From contig NC_000917.1 in NCBI RefSeq assembly GCF_000008665.1, forward strand, positions 1,350,001 through 1,382,000: a stretch of DNA of 32,000 bases, in the 5' to 3' direction. Source of the DNA: Archaeoglobus fulgidus DSM 4304 (GTDB taxonomy: Archaea; Halobacteriota; Archaeoglobi; Archaeoglobales; Archaeoglobaceae). A program made the translations under genes and the position numbers. This document shows positions 19,236 to 30,892 of the stretch, piece by piece. The notes beneath the pieces are model-generated. The model worked only from the letters and a program-made list of their open reading frames with translations. It did no database searches and had not been told where the DNA came from. The stretch's first letter is position 1, and every line of letters starts with the position of its first letter.

Positions 19236-19384
19236 GAATTTCCCGATAAATAATTACTATTTAAAGTTTTCCTTTCTTTTTTGATTGATTATTATACGAA
19301 TAAAACATGAGTTTTTATGCTTGCTTTTTTGGAAATTCCACAGAAGTAATTTTCCGGTAAGATTCAACAGCCAAGATACAACAG

Positions 19385-19466
19385 CGCCGGGGGTGGGATT
19401 CGAACCCACGCGGGCGAACGCCCACACGCTCTCCAGGCGTGCGCCTTACCGCTCGGCAACCCCGGC
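19385..19466 (-). tRNA. tRNA-Ser (anticodon GGA), class II, CCA not encoded
   Basis: I folded it by hand. The acceptor is GCCGGGG/CCCCGGC plus discriminator G. The D stem is 3 bp (GCC/GGC). The anticodon stem is CACGC/GCGTG with loop CTGGAGA. The long variable arm is GGGCGTTCGCCC and the T arm is GTGGG-TTCGAAT-CCCAC. Confidence 0.9.
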
Positions 19467-22682: not shown

Positions 22683-23262
22683 CTTCCATCTTTTCTAACA
22701 TCTCAGCAAACCTCTTAACCGTCTTTCTGAGACTTCTAAAACCTTCCTCATCCTCTTTAACACCTTCAAGCGTGTCCCTGCTCCAGAAGGTTGCCCCGAT
22801 GTTTGCGCCGAAAGAGCCCCCGCTGACTGGAATAACTCCGTTGAGAATGTAAAAGGTTAAAATCTGCTGTATCGCCAGCTCCTGTCCTCCAATTCTGTCT
22901 CCCCCAACGGCTATGGCCATCCCAACCTTTCCCCGGAAAAAGTCGTAGTCCGCAGCCACCAAAGCCCTGCAGCGGTCCATTACAGCCTTAATCTGCGCAC
23001 TAACACCGCCGTTGTAGACGGGAGTGGCCATCACTATGCCCTTCGCATCTTTCAGCATCTCGTAAAGCTCAAACATGTCGTCCTTGATTCTGCACTCCTT
23101 ATGCTTCAGACAGTAATCGCAGTGCTGGCACGGGCTTATTTTCTTACCTCTGACGGTAAAAAATTTGGTTTCGAAGCCCCTTTCCTCGAGCATTTTCAGA
23201 GCTTCGCCGAGAACGAACTCCGTTGCTTTCCTGCGCGGGCTTCCGCTTATTCCTACAATCAT
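22675..23262 (-). CDS. isf: Iron-sulfur flavoprotein (Isf; NADPH-dependent FMN reductase fold)
   Basis: MIVGISGSPRRK is a flavodoxin-like start. The compact cluster motif CQHCDYCLKHKEC (C-x2-C-x2-C-x5-C) is typical of Isf. Confidence 0.8.
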   Translation of the reverse strand: MIVGISGSPRRKATEFVLGEALKMLEERGFETKFFTVRGKKISPCQHCDYCLKHKECRIKDDMFELYEMLKDAKGIVMATPVYNGGVSAQIKAVMDRCRALVAADYDFFRGKVGMAIAVGGDRIGGQELAIQQILTFYILNGVIPVSGGSFGANIGATFWSRDTLEGVKEDEEGFRSLRKTVKRFAEMLEKMEGV

Positions 23263-24428
23263 CGTGCCAGCTCCCTTCCTAACTCGAAAGCCTTCTGCAG
23301 CTCCTCTTCGGATGGCTTGAACTTCACCATGAACGGTTCGAGGGTCTCGAACTTGAGCTCCTCAAGCACCTTCTGAACTTCCTTGACCGCATTCCCGTTC
23401 CAGCCGTAGGAGCCGAAAGCCAGAGCTTTTTTATTTTGTGGCTTCAGGCCCTTAAGGTATGTGAGAAAGCCGGCAACTGTCGGGAACAGGCCGTTGTGGA
23501 TTGTGGGTGAGCCAACAGCAATTGCCTTGGCGTCGAGGATCTCGGTAACAATGTCAGTCCAGTAATCCTTCCTGATATGCATCACTCTGACGTCAGCCCC
23601 TTCACTTCCCGCCCCTTCGGCGATTGCCATCGCAAGCTTCTCCGTCGAGTGCCACATCGAATCGAAGACGATAACGACCTTGTTTGTTGGCTCGAATCTT
23701 GACCAGCGGTCGTAGGCTTCGATTATCCTTCCGGGATTTTTCCACACAACTCCATGACTTGGGGCGATTATGTCAATCTCAAGCCCCGACTCCTTTATCT
23801 CCTTCAGCTTCTTTTGAATCAGCCCTCCGAGGGGCATGAGAATGTTTGCGTAGTAAACTTTGGCCCACTTCAACGCTTCTTCAACTCCGATTTCCTCATC
23901 AAACCTGTATTCGCTTGCAACATGCTGCCCGAAGGCATCGTTTGACAGCAAGATTTTGTCCTCGTTTATGTACGTTGCCATGCTGTCAGGCCAGTGGAGC
24001 ATGGTCATGTCTATGAACGTTAAGGTCCTCTTTCCGATTTTCAGTGTGTCTCCTCCCTTGACAACCTGAATGTTCCAGCCGTCGCAGTCGTAGTACTTGC
24101 AGATTCCATCCTTTGCTCTCTGCGTGCAAACTACGGTTGCATCCTTCGCAATCCTCATCGTGTCCGGCAAACCGCTTGAGTGGTCCGGCTCAATGTGGTT
24201 AACGATGACGTAGTCTATCTGCGAAGGGTCCACAAGCTTTCTTATCCTTTCCATAGACTCTTTCACGAATTTGTGCTTTACCGTATCAACGAGAACCACC
24301 TTATCATCCACTATGAGGTAGGAGTTGTACGTCAGCCCCCTTGCCGTAACGAAGTTGTGAAAATCCCTCTCATCCCAATCGATTGCCCCCACCCAAAATA
24401 CGCCGTCTTTCAACTCAACAGGTTTCAT
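23259..24428 (-). CDS. fprA: Flavodiiron protein (type A flavoprotein FprA; O2/NO reductase)
   Basis: I trimmed the track ORF (to 24725) to ATG 24428 (MKPVELKDGVFWVGAIDW). The TATA ttttatag (24451-24458, minus sense) is centred about 27 nt upstream. The diiron motif is NHIEPDHSS. A C-terminal flavodoxin domain is present (KVVIVFDSMWHSTEKLA). Confidence 0.88.
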   Translation of the reverse strand: MKPVELKDGVFWVGAIDWDERDFHNFVTARGLTYNSYLIVDDKVVLVDTVKHKFVKESMERIRKLVDPSQIDYVIVNHIEPDHSSGLPDTMRIAKDATVVCTQRAKDGICKYYDCDGWNIQVVKGGDTLKIGKRTLTFIDMTMLHWPDSMATYINEDKILLSNDAFGQHVASEYRFDEEIGVEEALKWAKVYYANILMPLGGLIQKKLKEIKESGLEIDIIAPSHGVVWKNPGRIIEAYDRWSRFEPTNKVVIVFDSMWHSTEKLAMAIAEGAGSEGADVRVMHIRKDYWTDIVTEILDAKAIAVGSPTIHNGLFPTVAGFLTYLKGLKPQNKKALAFGSYGWNGNAVKEVQKVLEELKFETLEPFMVKFKPSEEELQKAFELGRELAR

Positions 24429-24450
24429 ATGATTAACTTCATTCCCTCTC

Positions 24451-24530
24451 CTATAAAACTTTCTCTCGATTTTCGAATTTTTCAATTCCGAATGCAAAAT
24501 TAACCTTAAAAAGAATCGAAAAGATTTAAA
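24451..24530. promoter_or_regulatory. Divergent promoter region (fprA operon leftward; small ORF plus macro-domain gene rightward)
   Basis: A TATA for fprA lies at 24451-24458. The TATA gatttaaa at 24523-24530 is centred 26.5 nt upstream of ATG 24552. TTCGAA/TTTTCGA-like half sites occur between them (24466-24520). Confidence 0.5.
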
Positions 24531-24551
24531 GGAGTGCGGCTTAGGGCAGCC

Positions 24552-24737
24552 ATGTACCTCGAAGTTTGGGTCAACCATCTTGAGAGGGAGAAAGCCTTGG
24601 AGAAGCTGAAGGAAATTTGCGAGGAGGTGCACGAGGTTTTTTACGACTACGACTACATCGTCAGATACTCTGGCAGTGAAGAGGACTTGCTGAAAGTTGA
24701 AGGTGTGAAAAGGGTGAGGAGACACTACAACTGTTAG
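24552..24737 (+). CDS. Hypothetical 61-aa protein upstream of the macro-domain gene
   Basis: MYLEVWVNHLEREKALEKLKEICEEVHEVFYDYDYIVRYSGSEEDLLKVEGVKRVRR. The ATG sits exactly at the leaderless distance from the TATA. The gene ends 36 nt before the macro ATG, which has no TATA of its own. Confidence 0.5.
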   Translation: MYLEVWVNHLEREKALEKLKEICEEVHEVFYDYDYIVRYSGSEEDLLKVEGVKRVRRHYNC

Positions 24738-24773
24738 CGAAAGACCTTTTTGATGGAACGGCGTACTTTAATC

Positions 24774-25352
24774 ATGGAGGTGCTTTTTGAGGCCAAGGTT
24801 GGGGACATCACTCTGAAGCTCGCTCAGGGGGACATCACCCAATACCCGGCAAAGGCAATTGTCAACGCGGCCAACAAGAGGCTGGAGCACGGCGGAGGGG
24901 TGGCTTATGCCATCGCAAAAGCGTGTGCAGGAGATGCCGGGCTCTACACGGAAATCAGCAAAAAGGCCATGAGAGAGCAGTTTGGAAGAGACTACATCGA
25001 CCACGGCGAGGTCGTTGTTACACCGGCCATGAACCTCGAGGAGAGGGGAATAAAGTACGTTTTCCACACCGTGGGGCCGATATGCAGCGGCATGTGGAGC
25101 GAAGAACTGAAAGAGAAGCTTTACAAGGCTTTTCTTGGCCCGCTGGAGAAGGCGGAGGAGATGGGCGTCGAATCCATAGCCTTCCCTGCTGTGAGCGCTG
25201 GGATATACGGCTGTGATCTGGAAAAGGTTGTTGAGACGTTCCTCGAAGCTGTGAAGAACTTCAAGGGTTCGGCTGTCAAGGAAGTCGCGCTTGTAATCTA
25301 CGACAGAAAGTCTGCGGAGGTGGCGCTGAAGGTCTTTGAGAGGAGTCTTTGA
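24774..25352 (+). CDS. Macro-domain protein (MacroD-type ADP-ribose binding/hydrolase; Af1521-like)
   Basis: I trimmed the track start 24750 to ATG 24774, giving 192 aa. MEVLFEAKVGDITLKLAQGDITQYPAKAIVNAANKRLEHGGGVA and IAFPAVSAGIYG are the canonical macro motifs. From memory it matches Af1521. Confidence 0.93.
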   Translation: MEVLFEAKVGDITLKLAQGDITQYPAKAIVNAANKRLEHGGGVAYAIAKACAGDAGLYTEISKKAMREQFGRDYIDHGEVVVTPAMNLEERGIKYVFHTVGPICSGMWSEELKEKLYKAFLGPLEKAEEMGVESIAFPAVSAGIYGCDLEKVVETFLEAVKNFKGSAVKEVALVIYDRKSAEVALKVFERSL

Positions 25353-25422
25353 TTATTTTTTCTTTTGGCTTTGGCCAGTTTCACCAGCATAGCTTTTTAA
25401 CCCTCCTTACCTAATATGCCCA

Positions 25423-27720
25423 ATGACCGTTCGCAGTCTTCTTGAAGAGGTTTCAAAGGCGGCGGAAATCGCTGCCAGCAATCGACACAGGTTTATGGTC
25501 ATTCTATGCTCAAAGGAGCTCAACGACAGGGTTGTTAAAATAGCCAAGAGGATTTACAAAAAGCACAGAAAAAGGATGAACGAGGACAACCTCCTCATTG
25601 CGGGGAGGAGCGATTTTCTTGATATCACCCGAAAGTACTTTGAGGGGGAGTTTCTGCACTACAAGGACTCGCCGAAGGTGCTTGGCCAGACCTACTCCTC
25701 CCTTTTGATAGACTTCACCGAAGGTTTTCATCCCAACGATTTGGGAATAATCGTTGAGACGATCAAGGAGGGTGGAATAATCATAGCCTTCTCCCCGCCC
25801 ATCGAGCAGTGGGAGAATCTGAAGAGCAGGTGGCACGAGGAGCTTGTTTCCGAGCCCTACACAGTTGAGGACGTAACAGGGAGGTTTTTTGCGAGGTTCA
25901 TGAGGAGGACGCTTCAGGCGGAGGGCATAATTATCTTCGATGCGGACAGAAGAAAAATCATCAAGCACTACGAGTTTGAGCCGAAGGAAATTTCGAGAGA
26001 GGAAATCGTAATTCCCGAAGACATTGAAATCAAGAGGAAGCTATACAAGCTCTGCGCAACTCAGGACCAGGTCAGAGTTCTGCAGGTCTTCGAGCGATTT
26101 TTTGACAGAAAGAGGGAGAGGAAAGCTGTTGTGATTACGGCCGACAGAGGGAGGGGAAAGACGGCCATTTTGGGCATCGCCACACCCTACATAATTTCAA
26201 GGATGGAGAGGCTGCTCAAGAGGCCTGTGAGGATTATGGTTGTGGCTCCAACCCCTCAGGCGGTACAGACCTACTTCAGATTTCTCCTCAAGGCGATGGT
26301 AAGGCAGGGGATGACGAAGTACTTCGCAAAGGAGACAAACGGCCTGATAACGGTTGTCAACAGCAAGTACGCAAGGGTTGAGTACGTTGTGCCGAGAAGG
26401 GCGATGCTGGAGAAAGACACTGCGGATGTAATCATAGTCGATGAGGCTGCAGGGATTGACGTGCCTGTGTTGCTTAAAATCACTGAAGGGGTCAGGTACA
26501 TGATTTTCTCCACGACAATTCACGGTTACGAGGGCACGGGAAGGGGATTTGCCATCAGGTTTTTGAAAAGGCTTGAGAGTGACGAGACGGTTGAAATCGA
26601 AAGAATCCACATGGAGGAGCCAATCAGGTACGGTAAGGGAGATCCGATAGAGAAGTGGCTTTACGATGTGCTACTACTTGACGCTCAGCCGGCAGAGCTC
26701 GATGATGAGGATGTCGAAGCTATAAAGCAGGGGAAGCTTGAGTTCAGGGAGGTGGACAAGGATGCGCTGGTGAACGATGAGAAGCTCCTGAGAGAGTTTT
26801 TCGGAATCTACGTGCTCGCTCACTACCGAAACCGTCCTTCAGATTTGGCAATACTCCTCGACATGCCGAACCACCTTCCATTCATTGTTACGGTGAACGG
26901 CAAACCCGTTTGCTCCCTTCACATCGCAGTTGAAGGGAACCTCGACGATGAAACAATCGAGAAAATAAAAGAAGGCTACAAGCCGAAAGGACAGATAATC
27001 CCCGACCTGATGCTGAAGCACTACTGGGACTTCGAGTTTCCGAAACTTGTAGGCGCGAGGGTGGTGAGGATAGCAACCCACCCGTCTGTTATGGATATGG
27101 GGATCGGGAGCTTTGCCCTGGCGAAGATAGTTGAGTGGGCCTACGGCAGAGACATGGACTGGGTTGGTTCGGGATTCGGAGTTTCACCGGAGCTTCTCCG
27201 CTTCTGGGCTAAGAACCACTTTACACCCGTGCACATAACACCTCAGAGGAACGAGGTTAGCGGAGAGCACACCTTAATCGTTCTAAGGGCTTTGAAGTAC
27301 GATGTAGAGGATGTTGTTGAGAAGCTCAATTCGGAGTTCACGAGAAGGCTGATTGAATACCTGGCGGACGAGCTTTCAGATTTGGAGACCGAGACGGCGG
27401 TTCTTCTGCTCAGGTCTCTTAGAAGGAGCTTTGAAATTCCTTCCCCCAGATTCGGAAAGGTGGAAAGGAGGAGAATGAGCAAGTACTTCCAGGGCATGAG
27501 CCTTTACGAGTACGTTTCGGACATAATAAGGCCGCTCGTAAGATATTACTACTCCAGAACTGACAGAGACGAGCTTGAGGAGGTTGAGGAAGAGGTTTTG
27601 ATTGGAAAGTGTCTGCAGCTAAAGCACTGGTCCGAGCTGCCGGGGGAGGGGTATAAGAAGTACAGAACACTCCTGAATGCCGTGAAAAAAGTCTGGAGAT
27701 GGTACTATGGAGAGGATTAA
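25423..27720 (+). CDS. tmcA: tRNA/RNA cytidine N4-acetyltransferase (TmcA/Kre33/NAT10 homologue)
   Basis: 765 aa. It has a DUF1726-like N-terminus, a helicase P-loop (TADRGRGKTA), a Walker B motif (VIIVDEAAGI), a GNAT domain (RIATHPSVMDMGIGSFAL) and a tRNA-binding tail. The TATA at 25393-25400 is centred 26.5 nt from the ATG. Confidence 0.88.
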   Translation: MTVRSLLEEVSKAAEIAASNRHRFMVILCSKELNDRVVKIAKRIYKKHRKRMNEDNLLIAGRSDFLDITRKYFEGEFLHYKDSPKVLGQTYSSLLIDFTEGFHPNDLGIIVETIKEGGIIIAFSPPIEQWENLKSRWHEELVSEPYTVEDVTGRFFARFMRRTLQAEGIIIFDADRRKIIKHYEFEPKEISREEIVIPEDIEIKRKLYKLCATQDQVRVLQVFERFFDRKRERKAVVITADRGRGKTAILGIATPYIISRMERLLKRPVRIMVVAPTPQAVQTYFRFLLKAMVRQGMTKYFAKETNGLITVVNSKYARVEYVVPRRAMLEKDTADVIIVDEAAGIDVPVLLKITEGVRYMIFSTTIHGYEGTGRGFAIRFLKRLESDETVEIERIHMEEPIRYGKGDPIEKWLYDVLLLDAQPAELDDEDVEAIKQGKLEFREVDKDALVNDEKLLREFFGIYVLAHYRNRPSDLAILLDMPNHLPFIVTVNGKPVCSLHIAVEGNLDDETIEKIKEGYKPKGQIIPDLMLKHYWDFEFPKLVGARVVRIATHPSVMDMGIGSFALAKIVEWAYGRDMDWVGSGFGVSPELLRFWAKNHFTPVHITPQRNEVSGEHTLIVLRALKYDVEDVVEKLNSEFTRRLIEYLADELSDLETETAVLLLRSLRRSFEIPSPRFGKVERRRMSKYFQGMSLYEYVSDIIRPLVRYYYSRTDRDELEEVEEEVLIGKCLQLKHWSELPGEGYKKYRTLLNAVKKVWRWYYGED

Positions 27721-28018
27721 CTTTGATTCGGAGTTTGTTGAAAGAATAATCAACGGAGAGAAGATTACCACCGTAAGGAGGGGGATAAAGAGCTATCCGG
27801 TCGGAAGAATTGTCGAACTCACAGCAAACGGGGAGAGGTTCGCTCTGGCGAAGGTGAAAAAGGTGGTAGTGAAGAGGGTGAGGGAACTAACTGATGAGGA
27901 TGCCATAAGGGACGGTTTCAAAAGCCGAGAAGAGCTGATTTCTGCGTTAAAAAGAATATATGGGGACATAAGGGATGATGAGTTCGTAACCGTCGTTCAT
28001 TTCGAGGTCGTGAAATAA
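27707..28018 (+). CDS. ASCH-domain protein
   Basis: 103 aa. The ATG lies inside the last 14 nt of tmcA. FVERIINGEKITTVRRG matches the ASCH motif G-x-K-x-x-T-x-R. DEDAIRDGF...LISALKRIYG is typical of the family. Confidence 0.8.
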   Translation: MERINFDSEFVERIINGEKITTVRRGIKSYPVGRIVELTANGERFALAKVKKVVVKRVRELTDEDAIRDGFKSREELISALKRIYGDIRDDEFVTVVHFEVVK

Positions 28019-29575: not shown

Positions 29576-30892
29576 CTACTGCAATCCCTCTACGTATTTC
29601 ATAAGCTCTTCTTCCGATAACTTAACAAAGCGGTTGTACATCTCCCTTATCTTCTCAACTGGGCTTAGCTCAACCTGATAGAGGTTGATTACTCCAAGGA
29701 GGTCATCTTTTTCTATCTTTCCATCAAAAAGCGGTAAAAAGATTGCCTCATCGACCTTCCCCCCCTCTTCAACTCTCCAGGGCAAATCAGATACAAGGTC
29801 GATGAGCACTCCATCAGAGTGGCGCATGATCTCCATTGGATAGACGATCGTGTTTGCTGGAATTTTTATTTTCTTTATTTTAACTCTAACTGGCTTGTTT
29901 TTAGTAAGCTCCTTGTCCTCTGCTGCGACGACAACTTCCCACCTCGCTACAGGGCTCCTATGGTAGCCAAAAGGAGGGAGATGCACCTTCTTTCTAATGA
30001 TTTTTTCTTCCTTCCTGTAAACCAGGGTAAAATCCTGAGGCTCTTTGGTTGCAATCAGCGGCTCGAGTTTCTTTAAACCAACGTAGTAAACATTGATAAC
30101 ACCCAGTAAATCCCCCCTCTTTATTTCCCCATCATCAACAGCAAGAAATACAGCCTGCTCAATATTCTTTGGCTCCTCAACTCTTCTCGGTTTTCCAAGC
30201 TGCACAACGTCAACTACAACTCCGTAGGGATTTCTGGATATGGAAAGCGGAACGACCACAGTGTTTGGGGGTAACTCAACGTTTCTGATTTTCACTCTCA
30301 AAACATCCCCAGCCCTCACCCCAACATCTTCGTCCGCAACCAGGGGCTCCCAAACTCCCACATGTGTTCTTGTGTACCCAAAAACTTTCGTAGAAATTTT
30401 CTCCCTGTAAATGTTTCCGTCGTCCCTCCACGTAATGTTTGCCTCAACAATCTCTTCCCTCAGCTCAACCTTGGTCGGTTTGAGGTTAAAGAGCCTCGAA
30501 ATTAGGCCCGTTTTTATGAAAAACACCTTCAGAACACCGACTATATCACCCTCCCTTACCACACCATCATCAACAGGGAGAAAAACCACTCTCTGGATGC
30601 ACTTTTCGTCCTCAACCCTCGTCGGTATTCCGCATTCGACGACATCCAGCACGGTGCCAAGAGCGTGTCTCATAATGTGCAGGGGGCCGACCATAGTCCC
30701 CCCGGGAATTGTGAAGGGTCTTACCTCAATAATCTCGGGCTCCCCTTTTTTCACCTCGACGTCATCCATCGCGATCAGCGTCTTCCACTGAGTCAAAGGA
30801 ATGATTCTGTAGCCAAAAGGCTTAAGCTCAACCTTGAGGCTACCCCTCTCACCCCCAACCTCGTCTGTCCAGTACTTCATCTTTACGGCCAT
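29576..30892 (-). CDS. 438-aa soluble protein built from three tandem homologous modules, unknown family
   Basis: An FGY...W...V.....IP..T.V.P..I.R...GV..D.V......RVEE......A.FL...DG.I...D..GV.N.Y pattern recurs three times (FGY at aa 26, 171, 308). A GGTGG SD precedes the ATG, and a TATA-rich box lies at about 30931-30950. Confidence 0.8.
   Translation of the reverse strand: MAVKMKYWTDEVGGERGSLKVELKPFGYRIIPLTQWKTLIAMDDVEVKKGEPEIIEVRPFTIPGGTMVGPLHIMRHALGTVLDVVECGIPTRVEDEKCIQRVVFLPVDDGVVREGDIVGVLKVFFIKTGLISRLFNLKPTKVELREEIVEANITWRDDGNIYREKISTKVFGYTRTHVGVWEPLVADEDVGVRAGDVLRVKIRNVELPPNTVVVPLSISRNPYGVVVDVVQLGKPRRVEEPKNIEQAVFLAVDDGEIKRGDLLGVINVYYVGLKKLEPLIATKEPQDFTLVYRKEEKIIRKKVHLPPFGYHRSPVARWEVVVAAEDKELTKNKPVRVKIKKIKIPANTIVYPMEIMRHSDGVLIDLVSDLPWRVEEGGKVDEAIFLPLFDGKIEKDDLLGVINLYQVELSPVEKIREMYNRFVKLSEEELMKYVEGLQ
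29669..30031 (-). repeat. Intragenic protein repeat 3 (aa 288-408)
   Basis: FTLVYRKE...PFGYHRSPVARW...IPANTIVYPMEIMRHSDGVLIDLV...RVEEGGKVDEAIFLPLFDGKIEKDDLLGVINLYQV. Confidence 0.7.
30077..30442 (-). repeat. Intragenic protein repeat 2 (aa 151-272)
   Basis: ANITWRDD...VFGYTRTHVGVW...LPPNTVVVPLSISRNPYGVVVDVV...RVEEPKNIEQAVFLAVDDGEIKRGDLLGVINVYYV. Confidence 0.7.
30512..30877 (-). repeat. Intragenic protein repeat 1 (aa 6-127)
   Basis: KYWTDE...PFGYRIIPLTQW...IPGGTMVGPLHIMRHALGTVLDVV...RVEDEKCIQRVVFLPVDDGVVREGDIVGVLKVFFI. Confidence 0.7.

Follow-up and report, generated by a model that had tools for sequence, protein, structure and literature searches.

The gene that would write N4-acetylcytidine (ac4C) into the RNA of Archaeoglobus fulgidus DSM 4304 is overlapped by the gene of a small ASCH-domain hydrolase that takes the same acetyl group off again, and the two probably form one operon. 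In the 32,000-nucleotide (nt) stretch analysed here (the window; contig NC_000917.1, positions 1,350,001 to 1,382,000, with coordinates below counted from its first letter), tmcA occupies 25423..27720 on the + strand and codes for a predicted RNA cytidine N4-acetyltransferase of the TmcA/NAT10/Kre33 type. The ASCH gene follows on the same strand at 27707..28018 and codes for a 103-amino-acid (aa) protein, published as the ac4C amidohydrolase Afu2ASCH (protein AAB89733.1). In the model that we favor, tmcA and the ASCH gene would be a two-gene operon with its own promoter, in which the ASCH gene is translated in coupling with the end of tmcA. The TmcA enzyme would spend acetyl coenzyme A (acetyl-CoA) and ATP to form ac4C in RNA, and the ASCH protein, a small cofactor-free amidohydrolase of the YqfB clade, would return ac4C to cytidine and acetate. 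Being made in step with the writer, it would provide a clean-up capacity matched to the ac4C load, and it would not be a separately regulated switch that strips functional marks. We hold this reading as a whole with good confidence, and the clean-up role within it at about even odds. The subject matters since no acetyl mark on RNA other than ac4C is known, hyperthermophilic archaea make heavy use of ac4C, and its enzymatic reversibility is an active question.

The two proteins had been named in a sequence-only reading of the same DNA as a TmcA/Kre33/NAT10-type enzyme and an ASCH protein, and domain and structure matches bear out both names. The 765-aa tmcA product, read from an ATG start, contains three main Pfam domains with scores far over their cut-offs, namely TmcA_N (DUF1726, PF08351; E 8.2e-39, residues 9-173), NAT10_TcmA_helicase (PF05127; E 5.2e-57, residues 237-420) and GNAT_acetyltr_2 (PF13718; E 9.6e-42), and also a weak match to tRNA_bind_2 (PF13725) at 19.9 bits against a 27-bit cut-off. 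The Walker A residues G243, R244, G245, K246 and T247 are invariant in the TmcA alignment A1, and the matches in the Protein Data Bank (PDB) include, with similarity over the full length, Kre33/NAT10 (E 1e-69) and E. coli TmcA (2ZPA, E 1e-35). Against the NCBIfam equivalog model NF041296 (RNAactase_tcmA_Halo) the product scores 509.5 bits where the cut-off is 700 bits; the model's name points to haloarchaeal TmcA, and this shortfall is no argument against TmcA function. As judged from these matches, the tmcA product is a TmcA/NAT10-type acetyltransferase for which ac4C formation in RNA is predicted.

The 103-aa protein matches the Pfam ASCH family (PF04266) over residues 5-103 (E 3.6e-19) and is identical to AAB89733.1 (DSM 4304) and AIG98534.1 (DSM 8774). 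An AlphaFold2 model built from 40 homologues has a mean predicted local distance difference test score of 95.6, and a fold search of the PDB with this model returned E. coli YqfB in complex with ac4C as the best match (9KYH_B; template-modelling (TM) score 0.84, root mean square deviation 1.8 Å, 101 columns). Ranks 1-3 are all YqfB chains with or without ac4C (9KYH, 9KYF; TM scores 0.83-0.84), and these chains outrank all other ASCH structures, archaeal ones included. All 17 matches at E <= 0.001 are ASCH or the related DUF984, and ASCH matches run to rank 21. YqfB is also the only ASCH protein in the PDB matched by the family sequence profile (E 0.0044), so that the suggestion of YqfB as the relevant relative holds by fold and by profile alike. 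When the single sequence was run against the PDB with phmmer, no ASCH structure came up; YqfB was recovered only by the profile and fold searches.

Does the archaeal protein retain the catalytic residues of YqfB? The GxKxxTxR octapeptide is present as G17-E-K19-I-T-T22-V-R24, within NGEKITTVRR, and these residues align exactly with YqfB G19, K21, T24 and R26, as the spacing noticed in the sequence-only reading had implied. Both MAFFT and hhalign pair K19 with K21, T22 with T24, R24 with R26, Y85 with Y89 and D69 with E74. The acidic residue anticipated in the C-terminal segment DEDAIRDGF is thereby D69, and the Lys/Thr/Glu set that had been named for YqfB is kept in its lysine and threonine, with Asp69 replacing the glutamate. 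In YqfB, the K21A, T24A and R26A variants are inactive, and activity falls 100- to 1000-fold in E74A, about 10-fold in H70A and about 3-fold in Y89A (PMC6972931). By analogy with YqfB, cofactor-free hydrolysis of ac4C by a Thr/Lys/Asp triad with an arginine oxyanion hole is well supported. In this scheme Thr22 would be the nucleophile, Lys19 the catalytic base and Arg24 the oxyanion-hole residue (codons of the octapeptide core K19-I-T-T22-V-R24 at 27761..27778, + strand), Asp69 (27911..27913, +) is the predicted general acid, and Tyr85 (27959..27961, +), placed by hhalign, would position the substrate. A HMMER search of 1.84 billion representative proteins gave 2,262 clusters at E <= 1e-3, and among the best 150 of these the lysine is kept in 147, Thr/Ser in 148, the arginine in 148 and the tyrosine in 148. 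The Asp69 position holds Asp in 137 and Glu in 10 of the same 150 (Asp/Glu in 147), and Glu also stands there in the distant tmcA-linked homologues P0373, P0376 and P0380. This near-invariance indicates selection on catalysis.

The top 150 representatives were also inspected for length. About one third are 165-250 aa long, consistent with C-terminal extensions like those of Afu3ASCH and Pku4ASCH, and none is of TmcA length, as a TmcA-ASCH fusion would be. A separate observation concerns residues 50-96 (27854-27994), where the C-terminal helix DGFxSxxELxxALKxIYG has sub-threshold similarity to the N-terminal region of the RNA 2'-phosphotransferase Tpt1/KptA in solved structures (E 0.03 with the family profile, 0.3 with the single sequence), which is probably due to chance.

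The deacetylation of ac4C that the sequence-only reading proposed for this ASCH protein has already been reported, in a preprint, for the protein itself. Statkeviciute et al. (February 2026, bioRxiv 10.64898/2026.02.27.708502) cloned three ASCH genes of A. fulgidus DSM 4304, and the ORF of the window can be identified as their Afu2ASCH because the cloning primers match its ends: reverse-complementing 28003-28017 gives the reverse primer exactly, and the forward primer matches 27707-27724 with one mismatch. The printed Afu2ASCH_F primer reads ATGGAGAGGATTAACCTT (AACCTT) where the genome has AACTTT (27707-27724); either the assayed protein carried F6L, at a Phe6 that is invariant in the family alignment, or the difference is a typographical error. 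That preprint places Afu2ASCH in the GKTR (YqfB-type) octapeptide group and reports that 4 h suffice for the enzyme to hydrolyse all of the ac4C nucleoside. According to the same work it deacetylates tRNA in vitro, at ac4C34 in E. coli tRNA and at ac4C12 in wheat-germ tRNA, and its overexpression in E. coli overrides TmcA and reduces the ac4C of tRNA. Afu2ASCH is not among the tRNA binders in its electrophoretic mobility shift assays (EMSA), its introduction states that ac4C levels in hyperthermophilic archaea vary with temperature, and gene neighborhoods or linkage to tmcA are not discussed in it. A second preprint (Relier et al., August 2026, bioRxiv 10.64898/2026.08.01.741249, Fig. S1a) describes YqfB-clade ASCH genes in a conserved operon with TmcA/Nat10 'in several prokaryotes', and the two preprints disagree on the physiological substrate of the ASCH family. 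The enzyme activity and the operon association are both already known from these two works, and the earlier hypothesis is supported as right and is no longer novel. The present analysis adds how frequent the linkage is, what geometry the junction has, how deep the link reaches, where it was lost or relocated, and how well the catalytic residues are conserved.

Conservation of the adjacency, on which the earlier hypothesis depended, was measured on 80 tmcA loci retrieved by TmcA alignment from a one-genome-per-species collection, the genome scan using the patterns GFHPNDLG and KLYKLCAT, which are conserved in Archaeoglobi TmcA. Nearly all loci are from Archaeoglobi, with Methanophagales, Methanoxibalbensis, Hydrothermarchaeota and Pyrohabitans as outgroups, and 73 were usable, with tmcA complete at its end and 330 nt or more of sequence beyond it. 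This ASCH gene lies immediately 3' of tmcA on the same strand in 44 of these 73 species-level loci (60%), a denominator that covers Archaeoglobi and close outgroups. In two further loci it lies 171 nt and 1,545 nt from tmcA, and in 27 (about 37%) no ASCH gene is present by hidden Markov model (HMM). As a control, the best-conserved other neighbor of tmcA recurs in 12 of 63 loci upstream (19%) and in 6 of 66 downstream, and for this reason the pairing cannot be regarded as a chance adjacency. In a neighbor-joining TmcA tree, drawn without support values, the absences fall in about four monophyletic groups and the deepest branches keep the link, which suggests that the linkage, as far as these sequences record it, was ancestral and was later lost in some lineages.

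Small ORFs abutting tmcA in the 27 HMM-negative loci were searched for a divergent ASCH and none was found; these ORFs are NifU-like by the motif GACGxCP, and others are ArgJ-like or eIF2-gamma-like by inspection. The NifU-like ORFs characterize a hot-spring Archaeoglobaceae clade without the ASCH link, in which a small ORF with GACGxCP abuts or overlaps the tmcA stop (L042:8238-8528, L044:4141-4434, L048:2852-3091, L055:2763-3071, L058:8247-8537 and L062:8305-8544) and is followed by conserved ORFs of 138 and 192 aa. One Archaeoglobi locus holds a second ASCH gene besides the 107-aa copy (L011:9817-10362, + strand), 1.8 kb 3' of tmcA; its 181-aa product has the Pfam ASCH domain at residues 4-98 and a C-terminal extension, possibly Afu3ASCH-like with a helix-turn-helix (HTH).

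A broader range of archaea was sampled from the other side, by 12 context look-ups starting from ASCH homologues. Six of the 12 lie directly after tmcA (P0092, P0095, P0368, P0373, P0376 and P0380). In three of these six the TmcA proteins are only 36-37% and the ASCH proteins 28-39% identical to the pair of the window, the overlaps are 1-4 nt, and the remaining flanking genes bear no resemblance to those of the window. The unlinked homologues comprise two from archaea, one of them behind an encapsulin-like gene, and all four that were sampled in bacterial contexts (two labelled Planctomycetota and Acidobacteria, two unlabelled). To judge from these comparisons, the tmcA-ASCH linkage is deep, confined to archaea in our sample, and not obligatory. 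The overlap of a deacetylase gene with the writer gene, maintained over deep archaeal lineages, speaks strongly on genomic grounds for a role of this clade's ASCH enzymes in handling the writer's product.

Two of the unlinked contexts deserve description in their own right. In an Archaeoglobaceae metagenome-assembled genome (L084:1-731), an Afu2-type ASCH gene, 60% identical, lies away from tmcA and overlaps by 1 nt a gene with 139 visible residues, which the Linocin_M18/encapsulin shell model matches with its C-terminal part; the encapsulin-like gene stands at the contig start and is possibly cut by the contig end. Here the ASCH gene has apparently been relocated rather than lost. In an Acidobacteria-labelled contig (L095:1-4901), an ASCH relative is flanked by genes for an ABC-type ATPase and an HNH protein and overlaps both, and a DEAD-like helicase follows. 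The arrangement resembles a defence or restriction-type island and agrees with the contexts that Relier et al. give for other ASCH proteins.

The junction between the two genes is consistent with their joint expression. The ASCH ATG lies, as had been claimed, inside the last 14 nt of tmcA (27707..27720, + strand, read directly), a geometry that would allow translational coupling. This start codon is well supported, since the N-terminus MERINFD is conserved in homologues and the forward primer used for the published cloning also starts from this ATG. The overlap recurs in related loci with lengths of 14 nt (in 12 loci other than the window), 20 nt (8), 23 nt (6, including one for which no start codon was identified), 26 nt (4) and 11 nt (2), all of which share one relative frame and make up most junctions; in more distant archaeal loci it is only 1-4 nt. 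Upstream of the ASCH ATG, the Shine-Dalgarno-like GGAGATGG (27695..27702, +) lies 5 nt away within the tmcA coding sequence, and a Shine-Dalgarno-like 4-mer occurs at -18..-6 in 38 of 46 tmcA-ASCH junctions. The motif coincides with conserved Trp-Arg/Glu-Trp codons at the TmcA C-terminus, so its conservation could reflect coding constraint alone. At the other end of tmcA, a TATA-box-like TTTTTAA (25394..25400, +) ends 22 nt 5' of the ATG, and the element cTTTTTAAccc stands at equal distance from tmcA in the closest relatives (the window, L001-L007 and L010). Given archaeal promoter geometry, this element is a putative promoter, and its position suggests that tmcA has a promoter of its own and that the tmcA-ASCH transcript would be near-leaderless. 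The next gene 3' of the ASCH gene lies on the opposite strand and is convergent, for which reason the pair is taken to end its transcription unit. From the overlaps of 1-29 nt and this convergent neighbor, we infer that the two genes are probably co-transcribed on a single mRNA.

A more difficult question is what the ASCH protein does in the cell. We lean to recycling, in which the enzyme would act on the ac4C that is set free as nucleosides and nucleotides when RNA modified by TmcA is degraded, and on any ac4C exposed in unstructured RNA, and we give this particular role about an even chance. The rationale is fourfold: an efficient eraser obligatorily co-made with the writer would create a futile cycle, Afu2ASCH is missing from the list of proteins that bound tRNA, free ac4C responds to loss of YqfB or EOLA1 and RNA ac4C does not, and the YqfB pocket fits one nucleotide. 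Deletion of E. coli yqfB leaves tRNA ac4C unchanged, and in human cells loss of EOLA1 alters the free pool and leaves the ac4C of RNA as it was, structured RNA being protected. YqfB acts on acylcytidines with kcat/Km values of up to 2.8e6 M-1 s-1 (PMC6972931).

Several observations weigh against the model of a YqfB-like clean-up enzyme in a coupled operon. By hhalign, YqfB Asp27 and His70 are replaced by Arg25 and Asp65, so that of the residues 100% conserved in enterobacterial YqfB (Asp27, His70 and Tyr89) only the tyrosine is kept, as Tyr85, and the protein scores 18.8 bits on the NCBIfam YqfB equivalog model NF003443 (PRK04980), whose cut-off is 93 bits. On these sequence grounds it is best assigned, within the YqfB clade, to a subfamily of its own that is mostly archaeal, and it is not an equivalog of enterobacterial YqfB. 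The protein has an isoelectric point (pI) of 9.0 and a conserved basic strand, KVKKVVVKR, which YqfB does not have, and these features could form an RNA-contact surface. With tRNA as the substrate, Afu2ASCH ranked with the most effective enzymes, also for ac4C12 in the base-paired D-stem (bioRxiv 10.64898/2026.02.27.708502), which is at odds with a strictly free-nucleotide enzyme. Finally, co-transcription and translational coupling are deduced from gene geometry.

Some of these observations lend weight to a true RNA eraser, an enzyme that in the living cell would deacetylate folded tRNA or rRNA and perhaps mRNA as well. Together with the writer it would set a dynamic, perhaps temperature-dependent, steady level of acetylation, or it would proofread TmcA's off-target marks. 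The strong activity on ac4C34 and stem ac4C12 tRNAs in vitro, the overriding of TmcA upon overexpression, the basic strand and the temperature-responsive ac4C reported for hyperthermophilic archaea all agree with such a function. Antagonistic enzyme pairs may also share an operon, as DarT and DarG do. However, the tRNA assays employed excess or overexpressed enzyme and tRNA from mesophiles, removal of YqfB from E. coli or of EOLA1 from human cells does not change RNA ac4C, the EMSA did not report tRNA binding, and obligatory co-synthesis would consume acetyl-CoA and ATP to no end unless extra regulation intervened. We therefore regard an eraser as a distinctly less probable account than recycling, and one to be taken seriously. 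Rather unlikely, in our estimate, is the specific form of a stoichiometrically coupled write-and-proofread module, in which the ASCH protein strips off-target or misplaced ac4C as TmcA deposits it or resets acetylation when the temperature falls; what keeps it in consideration is the basic strand that YqfB does not have together with the reported activity on stem ac4C12. If such a module were true, it would offer a natural archaeal RNA-acetylation cycle open to genetics.

Could the two proteins be linked by something other than deacetylation? The ASCH fold is PUA-like, and gene overlap favors co-synthesis, which is common for subunits of complexes; one could accordingly picture the ASCH protein as an RNA-binding or specificity subunit of TmcA, as Tan1/THUMPD1 is for Kre33/NAT10, with its activity a remnant, a caution voiced for some ASCH proteins in bioRxiv 10.64898/2026.02.27.708502. 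Such a non-catalytic adaptor was rejected on account of the near-invariant Lys, Thr, Arg, Asp/Glu and Tyr in the 150 representatives and the published activity of Afu2ASCH. In addition, tRNA binding was not seen by EMSA, about 37% of tmcA loci have no ASCH gene and ASCH genes also occur away from tmcA, so that TmcA has no need of ASCH in cis; we consider this explanation very unlikely. The remaining explanation is that the adjacency has no functional meaning, being synteny inherited in a narrow lineage, and that the ASCH protein acts on other N4-acylated or modified bases. The 27 of 73 loci without the neighbor, the unrelated contexts of bacterial relatives (the defence-like ABC-ATPase/HNH/helicase cluster among them) and the acceptance of various N4-acyl cytosines by YqfB (PMC6972931) would permit it. 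It is nevertheless the least probable account, given that the ASCH link reaches 60% against at most 19% for any other neighbor, that it survives to 36-37% TmcA identity amid entirely different flanking genes, and that the association was reported independently by Aravind's group (bioRxiv 10.64898/2026.08.01.741249). The lasting value of the present analysis lies in the quantified conservation and in a sharper eraser-versus-salvage question, for which the linked pairs of archaea are good material.

Other genes of the window were noted as well. The macro-domain gene AF_1521 (24750-25352, + strand; 428 bits to PDB 1VHU) lies 70 nt 5' of tmcA and codes for an ADP-ribose glycohydrolase (PDB 1VHU/1HJZ); the solved protein starts at the internal Met9 (24774) and not at the TTG of the listed ORF. 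Its candidacy as a third member of the tmcA unit was rejected because the macro gene stands beside tmcA only in the window and because tmcA has its own TATA-like element; in one other locus, L025, a macro match lies about 5.6 kb from tmcA on the opposite strand. Further upstream, the ORF at 23259-24725 (- strand) contains ODP/metallo-beta-lactamase and flavodoxin domains, which we read as a flavodiiron-type architecture. It is listed as 488 aa from a GTG, its domains begin near residue 131, and by inspection translation probably begins at an internal Met, that of '...NHMKPVELKDG'. The 438-aa protein at 29576-30892 (- strand) is built of DUF22 domains, three in tandem (Pfam E 9.5e-123), which belong to a family without assigned function. 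ARAGORN and Rfam detect a single RNA gene in the window, a tRNA-Ser(GGA) at 19384-19466 (- strand).

Comparison with known systems places the pair as follows. Afu2ASCH and the ASCH protein of the window are products of the same gene, with the GxKxxTxR octapeptide and no C-terminal HTH in either. YqfB (PDB 1TE7, 9KYF/9KYH; PMC6972931) is likewise a single-domain ASCH protein of 103 aa, and ac4C activity has been reported for both, at an identity of only about 21%. The protein of the window differs in being basic (pI 9.0) with a Lys/Arg-rich strand and in having Asp69 for Glu74, a conservative replacement and not an identical residue. A further point concerns gene context: E. coli yqfB is not known to be adjacent to tmcA. 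Human EOLA1, a salvage deacetylase of free ac4C from the TRIP4-like clade, shares the ASCH fold and ac4C deacetylation and serves as a model for salvage; it differs in its GxKxxExR octapeptide, with Glu for Thr, in belonging to another clade, and in being a weak fold match (5Y7D, E 0.04). Afu3ASCH and Pku4ASCH share the GKTR-type catalytic domain and carry a C-terminal AAAD_HTH tRNA-binding domain, unlike the ASCH protein of the window, which has no C-terminal domain and for which tRNA binding is not reported. The operon of Relier et al. (bioRxiv 10.64898/2026.08.01.741249) represents the same association, a YqfB-clade ASCH gene with a TmcA orthologue. Unlike in their text, the frequency of the linkage (44/73), its geometry, its losses and its depth are quantified here for Archaeoglobi and neighboring archaea.

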